From an uncultured delta proteobacterium (GTDB lineage: Bacteria; Desulfobacterota; Desulfobacteria; Desulfobacterales; SG8-13): 64,000 bases of DNA. Both the position numbers and the translations under genes were made by a program. Each line of letters opens with the position of its first letter. Positions within the stretch are counted from its first letter, which is position 1. The stretch lies in the NCBI GenBank assembly GCA_963848135.1, contig CAWKCK010000005.1, positions 372,001 through 436,000 on the forward strand. Direction: 5' to 3'. Positions 12,216 to 16,323 of this stretch are shown here, piece by piece. The notes below the pieces were generated by a model. It worked only from the letters and a program-made list of their open reading frames with translations. It was not told the origin of the DNA and did not search any database.

Positions 12216-14083
12216 GGCAAACCCGCTTGCTGCAATAAGTCTTTGAACCGAGTGTCTCGTTCCGGGTCGTGGAGGGTGTGGCTCTGCATGAATCGGCCGA
12301 CGCTAAATTTCGGATTCAGCCGCATGACCTTGTCGGCGGCCAGTCTGGCTTCGTCCAACCGGCCGAGATCGGCGTATACAGCAGCGAGAAATGCCTGGGG
12401 GATAACGTGATTGGGGTTGAGTGCGATAGCCTTCTCGAACGACACAACGGCTTCCTCCTTGCGACCCACGAGGTGCAGCGCCACGCCGTAGGCGGATGGG
12501 AGCCACCAGGGATGCTTGGGACTCAGCCGCAGCGCCCGTTCGAATAGCTCGACTGCCTCCTGTTCTCCGCCAAAATCTTTGAGGCGCGTGGCCAGTCCGG
12601 CAACCGCAGGGACATCGTTTGGCGCCAGTTCGGCGGCCTTGCGTCTCAACTCGATAGCCCGTTCGCCTTGACCGCTCAAAGCATAAAGGTTCCCAAGCGT
12701 TTGGTAACCGAGCGTCGCATCCGGATCCATCTGGATGGCCCGCTGTGCCAACGCCATACCGGACCGGATTGACGCTTCCTTCGAGGCGCTCCACCCCTTT
12801 TTGGCCTCATACCAATCGACGGAGGCGAGTCCGGCGACAGGCCACGACCAATCGGGGTCCGCCTGATGAGCGGCCTCGTATAGCTCACGGGCGCGTATCA
12901 TCCCTTCCCGGGTGAACTTCATGAATTCAGCATATGCCTCGAGCCGCAGGAGCCAGGCCTCGAGATTGCTGGTTCCCCGACCCGCCATGCGCGCCGCATC
13001 GCCCTGTGTGAGCTCGACCTGCAATTCAACGATCACGTGCTTGACGATTTCATCCTGCAGCGCAAATACATCCCTTGCCGGCCGGTCGAAGCGATCCGCC
13101 CAGAGGTGGCGTGCGTTGAGAGCATCGACCAACTGGACGGTGATCCGAAGCTTATCATCCGCCTTCTGAACGCTGCCCTCGAGCACGTATTGGACGCCCT
13201 GCTCCTCGGCCACCCGTTTCACGTCGACCGGCTTTCCCCTGTAGGTGGCAGCGGAACTTCTTGCGATCACGAATAGTTCTGGGACCCTCGAAAGCGCCGC
13301 CGTCAGGTCCTCGGTCAGGCCCCTGGCGAAGAAGTCCAGCTTCGCATTGTCCGAATAGTTTTCGAACGGTAGCACGGCGATTGACGGTTTGTCGGGCAGC
13401 GGATAGGCCATACGGCCGACAGAGGCGGGCTCAAACGCGGGCCTCGCCTGATAATACAGGATGCCGCTAACTCCGGCCACCGCAACCAGAATGGTAACTG
13501 CCGCGGCCAGCCATAACCGCGCCAATGCCTTCGCTTTATGAGCACTGACGGTCTTGCCGGCGTCCTTCGGATCCAGCAGCAACTTGTATGCGTTGACCGG
13601 CTTTTCGATGTTCTTGACCGCCTGGGGTCCGAGGTCAGCGAAACCAATCTCGAGCTTGTTTTCGACCTGTTCGTACACCCGCCCGGATATACAGATGCCA
13701 CCAGGTTCGGCCAGACCCTCGAGACGCGCCGCCACGTTGACACCGTCGCCGTAAATGCTGCCGTCGGACTTTTCGATCACCTCTCCGAGGTTGACGCCGA
13801 TGCGGAATCGCATGTGCTGGCCCGCAGTCACGGGTTTGTCCAGCCGGGATAGCCCGACCTGGATGTCCCGCGCGGCTCTCACCGCGGCCGTCGCCGCTGT
13901 AAAGACTGCCAGGATGCTGTCGCCGGCCATGTCGACGACGCGACCGCCATGCTCGATGATGCTCTCCTCGAAAACCGCGCGGCTCGCATCCAGCGCAACC
14001 AGAGTTGCCTCCTCGTCGGAACCGATCAAGCGGCTGTAACCAACTACGTCGGCATGCAGAATCGCTGCGAGCCTACGCTCCAT
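12209..14083 (-). CDS. Class III adenylate/guanylate cyclase with TM, TolB-like and TPR domains
   Basis: [45 protein letters not shown]-type [17 protein letters not shown] repeats; GC-richer than flanks. Confidence 0.93.
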
Positions 14084-14340
14084 GCCCTCTCCTTCATGCG
14101 AACCATTTAAGCGGAACCAAGGGCACTTTCACAGGGCCCCAAGGTATCCGATAACGTTTACGAAATTAAATGAAAATAGGAACTTTCATCTCAAAGAAAT
14201 ATAGGGGAGCATACATTTGTGTCAATGCCTATGAAGTTACAGCAAGTTTGGGGAACAGAATGGACGTTATATATTGAAATAACTATAGAATATACTTCCA
14301 AGAGTAGTAAAAAAGAAAGTAATTATCGCCTTGTAAAAAA

Positions 14341-14400
14341 ATAACCTCCTGATAGCATAAGGGCACCCAAAACCTAAACCCACAGCTAAAAGGAGGTTAT
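14341..14400 (+). promoter_or_regulatory. Inverted repeat that would sequester the transposase RBS
   Basis: ATAACCTCCT (14341-50) is the exact reverse complement of AGGAGGTTAT (14391-400), 1 nt before the ATG. Confidence 0.7.
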
Positions 14401-14401
14401 C

Positions 14402-15685
14402 ATGAACGACTCTGACCTTAGCAGGATCGAGGGGTTCCGTCAACTCAAGCAGGAGATTCGGGGTTCGGATCGTCATTTGATCGTAGGAATCGATATCGCC
14501 AAGAGTACGCATCACGCTTTCCTGGGAACCGCAAACGGTAAAACCGTTTTGAAAGGCTTGATCTTTGAAAATTCACGGCAAGGGCTGGAGAAGCTTCTAA
14601 CCCGTGTGCAGTTTTACATGGACCGCGACGGTTTCAGAGAGGTCGTTTTCGGTGTTGAACCAACCAGTGTATATCATAAACCTCTGGCCGAGAAGCTCAT
14701 CGAGCACGGTCACATGGTCGTGTATGTCACCAATGAGGCCATAAAGAAAAACCGGACATTGCTCGATGGGCGCTGGGACAAAAACGACACCAAAGATGCA
14801 GCCAATGTGGCCGATCTTATCAGCCAGGGAAAATGCAACTATTATGATCTGCCCGGCATGCCGATCCGTGAACTGCGCAGTCTGCTGTTGTTGCGAAAGC
14901 GTTTAAAGAAGCAGCTTCACAGCTGCCGGGTGCGCATCCGCAACAATCTTGTGGCACAGTACTTTCCGGAGCTCGACAAATCGTGGAATCAGGCTGAAGA
15001 CGAGAACCTGGCCATAGTGCGCTGGTTTTTGTCTCCCGAGAAAATCAGATCTTTGGAATTTGAAGACTTTTTTAATCGGGTAACAAAGCGCTGCCGAGGC
15101 ATCCGTCAACGTCGTCGTCTACGCACAGTTTGGGAGATGGCCGGCGAGTCGATCGGCTGTCGCCCCGGCACTGCGATGCAACTTGAAGCAAAAGTCCTTA
15201 CCGAGAATATCAAAAGCACCAAAGAGCAGATCGAAAAAGTCGAGAAGGAAATCGAAAAGATTAGCGGCAGCTGCGAGGAGTATGCTCACCTGCAGACAAT
15301 TCCAGGATTCGGGCCGTATGTGTCGGCGGTCGTGCTGGCTGCGATCGGCAACCCGCACCGTTTTGAAAACATCCAGCAGCTCAAACGACTGGCAGGCTTT
15401 GACCTGAATGCTTCGCGCAGCGGTAAAAGAAGCCGCAGCGCCGTGCCGGTAATCAGCAAGAAAGGCAAAGGCGATTTGCGTTACGCTCTTTACCAGGCAG
15501 CTTTGGTGGCCTCGAGCTTGACCAGGCAGTTCAGAGCTTATTATCACAGCATCCTGAAAGGCAGAGAAAAAGAAAAAGGTATTCGCACCAAAATGCGTGT
15601 CAAGTTGGCGTCAAAATTTTTGGTGATCGCCTGGACCTTGATGAAGAAAAAGGAACCGTTCAGCCCGTCATATCTGAAGATATAG
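14402..15685 (+). CDS. IS110 family transposase/recombinase
   Basis: RuvC-like DEDD residues GIDIAK, GVEPT, KNDTKDA; Tnp domain LQTIPGFG, RF....L..LAG, SRSG (catalytic Ser), ISKKG...LRYALY. Confidence 0.95.
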   Translation: MNDSDLSRIEGFRQLKQEIRGSDRHLIVGIDIAKSTHHAFLGTANGKTVLKGLIFENSRQGLEKLLTRVQFYMDRDGFREVVFGVEPTSVYHKPLAEKLIEHGHMVVYVTNEAIKKNRTLLDGRWDKNDTKDAANVADLISQGKCNYYDLPGMPIRELRSLLLLRKRLKKQLHSCRVRIRNNLVAQYFPELDKSWNQAEDENLAIVRWFLSPEKIRSLEFEDFFNRVTKRCRGIRQRRRLRTVWEMAGESIGCRPGTAMQLEAKVLTENIKSTKEQIEKVEKEIEKISGSCEEYAHLQTIPGFGPYVSAVVLAAIGNPHRFENIQQLKRLAGFDLNASRSGKRSRSAVPVISKKGKGDLRYALYQAALVASSLTRQFRAYYHSILKGREKEKGIRTKMRVKLASKFLVIAWTLMKKKEPFSPSYLKI

Positions 15686-15701
15686 CTTGAATCGAACAGA
15701 C

Positions 15702-15883
15702 TTCGGCGAGAGAGCCCGAGAATGGACGTTGAGGCTTTGAGACCTCTGGAGGGACAATTAAGGGCCTCTCGCTGAGCCCCAAACTTTGACAAGGGATGAT
15801 GGGTGATCCCTCTCTGTCAGGGATATGCCGTATAAAAGTAACGATCAAGTCAGGGCTCATTTACAAGCGAGTTTATCCGCCGA
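15702..15883 (+). ncRNA. Predicted bridge RNA / seekRNA
   Basis: Two stem-loops with large internal loops; loop 1 carries AGAATGGACGT (identical to the left flank) and GGGAC (complement of the right flank); loop 2 carries GGATG and TATAA matching the circle junction. Confidence 0.75.
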
Positions 15884-16128
15884 ATTCCTTAACCAAAAAC
15901 GTAGAAGATAAGTGCGTCCATTTGATTACAAATATTATAACAAGTTGTAATCAATATAAAAAAGTAAAAGCTTGACAGGGGGAATACAGGATGTCCCGAA
16001 ACGATTTTGACGCTAACCGTGCTACTTTTTGTGACGCTACCTCATTTGACAACGATGCTCATTGCACTTACCCTCCTCTATAATACGGTCGGATGTTAAT
16101 CTACCCATTACCTAAAGGAGTGTTCAAA

Positions 16129-16323
16129 ATGGCTAAACGCGTTGTTATCGATACCGATGAATGCGTCGGATGTGAATCATGTGTGGAGTTGTGCTCAGAG
16201 GTGTTTGCCTTTAATGAGGATGAGGAAAAAGCTGAAGTCATCATGCCCGAGGGCGGCCCTGAGGATTGTATTGAGGAAGCGATAGACTCCTGTCCGACGG
16301 AGTGCATATCTTGGGAAGAGTAG
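16129..16323 (+). CDS. Ferredoxin (single 4Fe-4S cluster)
   Basis: CVGCESC...CPTECI; acidic 64 aa; RBS AAGGAG. Confidence 0.92.

Follow-up and report, generated by a model that had tools for sequence, protein, structure and literature searches.

What decides where a mobile element inserts is the question raised by one locus in the stretch of DNA considered here, 64,000 nucleotides (nt) from an uncultured member of the Desulfobacterales (NCBI GenBank assembly GCA_963848135.1), which we call the window. At 14268-15992 it carries an insertion sequence of the IS110 family, and behind the recombinase gene of this element lies a predicted RNA, one loop of which repeats the sequence that ends at the left junction. 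Bridge RNA-guided recombination by IS110 elements was described in 2024 (PMC11208160, PMC11208158). We consider it very probable (roughly 0.86) that the element is intact and that its 3' region, 15700-15851, encodes a two-loop bridge RNA of the IS621 type. This reading is carried by what was obtained directly, namely sequence matches, covariation within the RNA, covariation of its guides with the flanks and with the ends of the element, the element boundaries and the catalytic residues of the recombinase. It has to be weighed against the possibilities that the RNA is of the IS1111 seekRNA type, that the protein rather than the RNA reads the target, or that this copy has lost its function.

The element, its copies and its boundaries

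The element occurs three times in the genome at 100% identity, once in the window and twice on a contig that we name C18 (468844-470568 on the + strand, 460624-462348 on the - strand). The flanks of these copies are unrelated and have in common only [A/T]ATGG[A/G]CGT on the left and GTCCC on the right. The left flank ends in AGAATGGACGT and the right flank starts with GTCCCG at the window site, with the corresponding sequences being TCTATGGGCGT and GTCCCT at the C18 + site, TTTATGGGCGT and GTCCCT at the C18 - site, and TTAATGGGCGT and GTCCCC at the site of a related element on contig C4. GT stands at both junctions in all four sites. Flank positions -11 to -9 and -4 vary between copies, and both C18 copies read ATGGGCGT where the window has 14260-14267. 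The C18 - site has an uninterrupted paralog, which shares about 90% identity over 110 nt of the left flank, continues as ...ATGGGCGT-ACTGAAACTC..., is empty, has no CCC after the GT, and aligns without gaps to the left flank, one GT and the right flank. This alignment shows ATGGGCGT to be host DNA and the empty site to hold one GT only, and under the reading we favour ATGGACGT would count as host DNA as well, outside the element. The initial annotation had proposed a GT core, which is borne out by the junctions of the copies and by the single GT of the paralog; it had also considered that other copies might carry 14257-67 as element sequence, and this is contradicted by the differences at -11 to -9 and -4 and by the paralog that runs through the site.

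Contigs of relatives with 90-99% identity, from four public metagenome runs, diverge from the window to the left of 14258-14264 and to the right of 15997. The boundaries of the element are supported by the three sets of flanks in the genome, by the uninterrupted paralog and by these diverging metagenome contigs. Across the family the ends are conserved as GT-TATATAT on the left and ATAGRAT-GT on the right, the right end of relatives having the form TTGAC[A/G/T]-N15/16-ATAGRAT-GTCCC.

By its sequence the element is complete and recently active, given that three copies identical over 1725 bp at different sites imply recent movement. Its 427-amino-acid (aa) protein contains Pfam domains PF01548 DEDD_Tnp_IS110 (E 2e-26) and PF02371 Transposase_20 (E 9e-20) and scores 183.7 bits against NCBIfam NF033542, 'IS110 family RNA-guided transposase' (cut-off 140). 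Among proteins of solved structure the best relative is the recombinase of IS621 (8wt6, E 8e-20), where D11, E60, D102, D105 and S241 lie opposite D31, E86, D129, D132 and S340; in IS621 these residues form the DEDD site and the serine nucleophile (PMC11208158). With a whole open reading frame (ORF) and all five catalytic residues present, the recombinase is intact, in agreement with the initial annotation.

The neighbourhoods of the other copies have features of their own. On C18 (460624-470568, locus L008) the two copies are inverted around a 6.5-kb segment with genes for a CarboxypepD_reg-repeat protein of 1711 aa and a Y1 (IS200-like) transposase of 335 aa, and this locus contains, once filled and once empty, a repeat some 110 nt long that ends in TTATAATTTTATGGGCGT. 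The element on C4 (193817-197332; locus L007 2317-5833) is a sister with 66-68% identity, in which a variant guide, TGAATAGGCGT, faces the flank TTAATGGGCGT. A stop disrupts the gene of this sister, and a DDE (IS4/IS5-like) transposase gene interrupts its 3' part. The last 155 nt are 100% identical to the right end of the window element, and the sister is therefore a chimera or recombinant.

A predicted two-domain RNA behind the gene

Relatives were sought in one genome per species, which gave 237 stretches that encode them; the best 80 were fetched (49-93% amino-acid identity, mostly metagenome-assembled genomes of Desulfobacterota). The RNA alignment comprises 57 distinct regions, that is 55 loci, the window and C4, and leaves out rows without a recognisable 3' motif as well as L043 (50-nt insert) and L094 (mis-delimited). 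A conserved RNA-like region after the stop codon is common to the relatives. In the window the RNA would start 15 nt past the stop codon of the recombinase gene, so the 3' location claimed for it at the outset holds.

The stems and the inner hairpin that had been described for the target loop are present at their positions: GCGAGAG (15706-12) faces CTCTCGC (15766-72), GCCC (15714-17) faces GGGC (15762-65) and GAGG (15731-34) faces CCTC (15743-46). Outer stem and inner hairpin both appear in the minimum-free-energy fold of 15686-15992 (-86.5 kcal/mol, z = -2.63, with 1 of 100 shuffles as good). Comparative evidence goes further, as all 57 RNAs fit one two-domain structure with 30 pairs in four helices. 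Pairing is found in 88.4% of cells, compared with 79.7% in shuffles, none of 500 of which reach the observed value. Double-sided, compensatory changes affect 19 of the 30 pairs (12.9 expected), and pairing falls to 32-51% when the partner is slid by one to three columns. Helix 2, in the target domain, is 99.6% paired with double changes in three of its four pairs, and helices 3 and 4, in the donor domain, are 95% and 81.9% paired with double changes in 11 of 12 pairs. RNAalifold alone recovers 20 pairs, 13 of them with a compensatory change. The two-loop structure thus covaries over the family, and the donor loop, which lies inside the range of the initial annotation and had gone unrecognised there, completes a description that was right for the target loop.

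A covariance model built from the homologs gives a single match in the window (15700-15851, 145.4 bits, the window sequence being part of the seed). In the genome both this model and an nhmmer profile find four places, which are the three copies and C4, and of the 151 genomes sampled from the class 25 contain matches to the model, the genome of the window being one of them. Rfam has no family at threshold in 14000-16300, where eight sub-threshold matches are at chance level, nor in the relative L067.

Two further observations concern the surroundings of this RNA. In some relatives (L058/L059, L063/L067/L068/L092, L065, L093 and L105) the stop codon is separated from the target loop by a conserved insert of about 200-270 nt; it is GC-rich, contains hairpins, starts ...GGTGAAAC.GAGGCAGGCTCTGCTGGGGAGCAACC... 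and has no Rfam match. In the window itself, 14244-14258 in the left flank and 15772-15786 in the linker between the loops are complementary over 15 nt (87%, 10 nt exact), which we set aside as being at chance level for a region of that size.

The target loop and the flanks

The 11 nt AGAATGGACGT were reported to occur both in the 5' side of the target loop (15719-29) and at the left junction (14257-67), and these are indeed the only two places of the exact 11-mer on either strand of the window; allowing one mismatch gives three matches, with 1.02 expected. The identity extends to 12 nt (14257-68 and 15719-30). A second, unrelated exact 12-nt repeat (14543/15357) lies within the same 1.86 kb, and the length of the match is therefore not decisive by itself; the match is non-random because it adjoins the junction and is placed in an internal loop. 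The relation between loop and flank recurs in homologous elements, and it is from these that its extent can be judged.

We compared the 5' side of the loop with the 14 nt before GT-TATAT in the 56 of 84 rows that have both features, which yields 53 distinct pairs. Over eight positions before CGT, cognate pairs match at 5.06 positions on average and the 2,724 non-cognate pairs at 3.76; none of 10,000 permutations reaches the observed mean, a figure that overstates the significance because the compared IS110-family elements are mutually related and not independent. One cognate pair, that of the window, matches at all eight family-supported positions, six match at seven, 14 at six, 16 at five, eight at four, seven at three and one at one. 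The excess is concentrated at -7, -6 and -5 (0.77, 0.72 and 0.68 in cognate pairs, 0.32, 0.39 and 0.43 in non-cognate pairs), is weak at -9 and -4 and absent at -12 to -10, while RNA and flank are both conserved at -8 (A) and at -3 to -1 (CGT). What counts at the variable positions is identity of loop and flank, not mere correlation. Across the family the left guide tracks the left flank in the sense expected of a bridge or seek RNA, and so this interpretation, which the initial annotation had put forward, is supported by guide/flank covariation as well as by structure.

The same data do not sustain the long, 11-nt left guide that had been claimed along with it. The C18 copies match seven of the last 8 nt and none at -11 to -9, and the family gives no signal at -12 to -10, so that the extra AGA identity of the window copy finds no support in other copies or in relatives. 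With its signal at -7 to -5, weak at -9 and -4, and none at -12 to -10, the left guide is best taken as AUGGACGU, 8-9 nt including the core.

On the 3' side of the loop, GGGAC (15751-55) and the GTCCC at 15993-97 are reverse complements, as the initial annotation had it. All 57 RNAs carry GGGACAA, and 48 of 49 distinct sites have a right flank that opens with GTCCC; the right guide and the right half-site are fixed across the family. A longer right guide was considered and rejected, as the four nt before GGGAC show no covariation with +6 to +9 (0.33/0.24/0.22/0.20 compared with 0.24/0.20/0.21/0.16). The recombinase, called programmable in the initial annotation, may be so; natural variation is limited to about three to five positions of the left guide.

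Several relatives (L040, L051, L052, L060, L062, L063, L067, L068, L092 and L077-L080) have two tandem stem-loops resembling the target loop 3' of the transposase gene. The guide of loop 1 is conserved across diverged elements (TTCA[A/T]CCCCGT), and that of loop 2 varies and usually matches the left flank; in the Desulfosarcina variabilis copy L078 the flank fits loop 1 (5/8) better than loop 2 (3/8). The tandem loops hint at dual targeting. A longer left context, (G)TTATAAT(T)-N2-5-ATGGRCGT followed by CCCC[A/T]..., is seen at the sites in the window genome, in L038, L064, L069, L070, L074, L103 and L111 and in contigs of the public runs, and it is possible that the natural target is a conserved intergenic motif. 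The genome contains no high-copy target repeat, ATGGRCGT having 342 matches without excess, and the 11-nt target motif has three matches in it compared with four for a reversed control, none of them in a repeat context.

The donor loop and the ends of the element

The 5' side of the donor loop has the family consensus GAYAAGGRAUG. Where the RNA reads GG[G/A]AUG the right end reads AG[G/A]AT, and the R (15795) is concordant in 49 of 49 loci (27 A/A, 22 G/G), which amounts to three independent changes, all in the same direction (sign test p = 0.25), on a FastTree phylogeny of 42 transposases from which seven rows with stops or of short length were dropped. The Y at 15790 is a C that matches the C of the right end ATACAGGAT of the window element and L037; other elements have T in both places, and this is one event. 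The match of the guide to the right end requires a 2-nt bulge.

In every one of the 57 RNAs the 3' side of the donor loop reads [G/A]UAACG, and the family conserves GTTATAT as its left end, the alternation of purines in [G/A]UAAC being what a T partner would accept (G-T wobble or A-T). The right donor guide would accordingly be expected to pair with the core and the left end, GTTAT. By analogy with the handshake guides of IS621, two bases next to the guides could serve for a handshake, A15756 pairing with T15992 after strand exchange and G15843 with C14265; a pairing of G15843 with C14265 would explain why the C before the core is fixed.

Table 1. Features of the element and of its predicted RNA, by position in the window.
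Feature	Position	Strand	Basis or remark
IS110-family insertion sequence	14268-15992	+	1725 bp; GT on each side (14266-67, 15993-94)
Left target half-site and core, ATGGAC-GT	14260..14267	+	identical to loop 15722-29; host DNA according to the uninterrupted paralog
Left-end inverted repeat	14341-56 / 14385-14400	+	arms of 16 nt, 88% complementary
Recombinase gene, 427 aa (D31, E86, D129, D132, S340)	14402..15685	+	ORF, Pfam, NCBIfam, IS621 alignment
Predicted bridge RNA, target-binding then donor-binding domain	15700..15851	+	covariance model, alignment of 57 homologs
Target-binding loop domain	15706..15772	+	outer stem 15706-17 / 15762-72; inner hairpin 15731-34 / 15743-46
Left target guide AUGGACGU	15722..15729	+	guide/flank covariation; identity in the window reaches 15719
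Right target guide GGGAC	15751..15756	+	complement of GTCCC 15993-97; includes A15756, candidate handshake base for donor T15992
Donor-binding loop domain	15783..15850	+	outer stem 15783-86 / 15847-50; inner stems 15802-04 / 15827-29 and 15806-10 / 15820-24
Putative left donor guide GACAAGGGAUG	15788..15798	+	matches right end ...TACAGGAT-G (15984-15993) with a 2-nt bulge
Putative right donor guide GUAAC	15838..15843	+	pairs with GTTAT 14266-70 via one G-T wobble; includes G15843, candidate handshake base for target C14265
TTGACA, -35-like hexamer in the right end	15972..15977	+	after circularisation would lie 17 nt from the left-end TATATA
Core and right target half-site GTCCC	15993..15997	+	sequence, copies, family flanks

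Alternative readings

A first alternative, very improbable as we judge it, makes the element a member of the IS1111 group with a seekRNA like those of ISEc11, ISPa11 and ISKpn4, instead of a bridge RNA of the IS110/IS621 type. The position of the RNA speaks for it: a long non-coding region with an RNA downstream of the gene is the rule in IS1111 elements and a minority exception among IS110-type elements, as mentioned by both founding papers (PMC11187229, PMC11208160), and the RNA of the window element is not in the left end, upstream of the gene, as in the IS110 group. The order of the guides speaks against it, as the bottom-strand match (15722-29) precedes the top-strand match (15751-55), which is the order of ISEc21 and IS110 and the reverse of that in all IS1111 seekRNAs tested. 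By a comparison of length only, the transposase of 427 aa falls outside the 330-350 aa of IS1111 members, the IS110 subgroup having 395-455 aa (PMC11187229). The subterminal inverted repeats of 7-17 bp that characterise IS1111 elements have no conserved counterpart here, the best exact repeat being 6.7 nt compared with 6.2 nt in shuffled sequence (37 elements) at inconsistent positions, and the window element's own end repeat (11 nt, 91%) is not conserved in the family. Finally, as in IS621, it is a simple internal loop that holds the donor guide, and not a multiloop, where the donor-binding bases of IS1111 elements are often found. Apart from the 3' position of the RNA, the only likeness to IS1111 members including those with right-end bridge RNAs (PMC11208160), every tested feature, whether guide order, donor loop, protein length or the lack of subterminal repeats, looks IS110-like.

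Very improbable too, in our estimation, is that the protein mainly reads the conserved A...CGTCCC, with the RNA being only a scaffold or an element of the 3' untranslated region and the likeness of loop and flank being due to ancestry or chance. The observations on which this explanation can draw are among those that weigh against an RNA-guided choice of target. The A at -8, the C at -3, the GT and the CCC are invariant in the family, so that 8 of 12 target positions are uninformative: because they never vary, reading by RNA and reading by protein are indistinguishable there. The match is poor, at four or fewer of eight positions, in 16 of the 53 guide/flank pairs; the two C18 copies have an A opposite C at -4; the unrelated 12-nt repeat shows that such matches arise by chance within 1.86 kb; and the kinship of the elements inflates the permutation result. 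The concordance of the donor loop comes down to three independent changes, and the left donor guide has no match for the second core base (AUGAU, the element having ATGTT). What argues for reading by the RNA is that the variable positions -7 to -5 are identical to the cognate flank in 68-77% of cases, compared with 32-43% in non-cognate pairs, that the donor guide equals the right end in 49 of 49 loci, and that the geometry is that of IS621 and ISEc21, two systems proven by experiment.

The remaining points on the negative side concern activity. There is no direct sign of RNA synthesis, the contigs from RNA libraries spanning parts of the element and being silent on transcription, ends and strand. 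A promoter-like site shortly before the RNA was not found: 14200-16100 holds two such sites (1.8 expected), neither of them near 15600-15700. Joints that skip the element or close a circle are absent among the contigs of the public runs, and metagenome contigs have no match to the exact 24-nt words of the left and right flanks. A search in 40 related genomes for the empty site of the window copy, as the initial annotation had envisaged, did not find it, flank searches leading only to diverged intergenic DNA, and the nearest relative, G007, has no recognisable site for this copy. That the copy was recently inactivated or domesticated and its RNA no longer acts in transposition, as the missing circle junction and empty site in the contigs examined and the broken state of the related C4 copy might suggest, is scarcely credible in view of three identical 1725-bp copies at different sites, an intact ORF with all catalytic residues kept, and a guide that matches the window site at eight of eight family-supported positions.

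A possible route through a circle

If the bridge RNA reading is correct, transposition can be pictured as follows, on the model of the IS621 scheme. The element would leave as a circle in which right end and left end are joined by one GT. This junction would form a promoter, TTGACA-N17-TATATA, that reads into the recombinase gene with the RNA behind it, and the RNA would probably be transcribed with or behind the recombinase mRNA. In keeping with such a junction, 35 of 39 distinct right ends would place TTGACN 17 nt from TATATA across the joined ends and the other 4 would place it at 18 nt, the presence of TTGAC not being an independent result because the pattern used to search for ends required it.

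In the target loop, AUGGACGU would serve for the left flank and core and GGGAC for the core and right flank; in the donor loop, the right end would be served by GACAAGGGAUG, and the core with the left end by GUAAC (15838-42), as they are joined in the circle. Recombinase dimers on the two loops could then unite the donor junction with a site of the form A-NNN-R-C-GT-CCC, and strand exchange at the GT core by the 427-aa recombinase, with its four DEDD residues and S340 as nucleophile, would leave the element flanked by GT on both sides without target duplication. Transcription of the RNA, its binding by the protein, formation of the circle and the handshake bases are what we infer from the arrangement of these sequences.

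Expression of the recombinase may be subject to a further control. The left end of the element comprises 134 nt upstream of the gene and contains the inverted repeat of Table 1, which pairs CCTCC with the Shine-Dalgarno sequence GGAGG of the gene. The motif aacctcctg...aggaggtt is kept in most homologs, which suggests translational control of the recombinase.

Significance and comparison with known systems

A new class of programmable recombinases builds on bridge and seek RNAs, and to our knowledge few examples have been characterised, namely IS621, ISCro4, ISEc21 and some IS1111 members. The locus offers a natural example in which both loops, four guides, core and ends are mapped, with a GT core, a larger recombinase and a 3' RNA, and about 50 diverged relatives reveal which guide positions have varied in nature. 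It also indicates that a 3' placement of the RNA is not limited to IS1111-type elements, which bears on the movement of such RNAs between element ends. From the standpoint of the host genome, the locus is an ordinary insertion sequence with recent activity.

It is tempting to regard the family as a distinct lineage, mainly of Desulfobacterota, of bridge recombinases of the IS110 and not the IS1111 type, with a two-loop RNA behind the gene, a GT core, a fixed GTCCC and a fixed base before the core, and in some relatives a duplicated target loop and maybe two targets. Retargeting would then proceed through three to five left-guide positions only, because the right half-site and the base before the core are fixed. 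This proposal is tentative, and we would put its chances below even. The layout is a minority arrangement that was already noted in the 2024 papers, and the family may already have members in the 'green' IS110 group of Siddiquee et al., whose non-coding region lies downstream. No close named relative was found among plasmid-borne insertion sequences: the 180 records from a tblastn search of plasmids are all below 60% identity, with those listed being 25-29% identical (e.g. the ISBth13 family). The Durrant supplements, searched for six Geobacter/Desulfo IS names, gave only three unrelated alignment rows, and in a preprint (10.64898/2026.08.14.744561) no term on the 3' location of the RNA matched.

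Among the known systems, ISEc21 with its seekRNA (Siddiquee et al. 2024, PMC11187229) has the same order of guides, the bottom-strand match being 5' of the top-strand match, and resembles the window element in the overlap of its two matches where insertion takes place and in leaving the target unduplicated. It differs in having its non-coding region upstream of the gene, in its transposase of 358 aa, and in that the published seekRNA, of 58-74 nt, is the target-binding part only.

The closest parallel is IS621 (PMC11208160; PMC11208158; PDB 8wt6-8wt9). The recombinases of both elements combine a DEDD RuvC-like domain with a Tnp domain and its catalytic serine, the five residues being aligned, and both elements have a single RNA in which a target-binding internal loop precedes a donor-binding internal loop. 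In both, the 5' sides of the loops read the bottom strand over 8-9 nt and the 3' sides the top strand over 4-7 nt, the core dinucleotide is part of every guide and stands on both sides of the element, and the circle junction offers a candidate promoter. IS621 differs in carrying its RNA in the left end and not 3' of the recombinase gene, in its CT core, and in its protein of 326 aa, with the aligned regions about 6 residues apart compared with about 80 here. Further differences are that the window element, which is known here from sequence alone, belongs to a family with a fixed right target guide and half-site, GGGAC/GTCCC, and leaves the second core base unmatched in its left donor guide. 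The initial annotation had set the element apart from IS621 by its 3' RNA, GT core, 427-aa protein and long guide. The first three of these distinctions hold and the last does not, its left guide being 8-9 nt as in IS621, and the separation is smaller than was implied because 3' guide RNAs are known for IS1111 and for some IS110-type elements; the window element would on this comparison be a bridge RNA system built like IS621, with its RNA at the other end.

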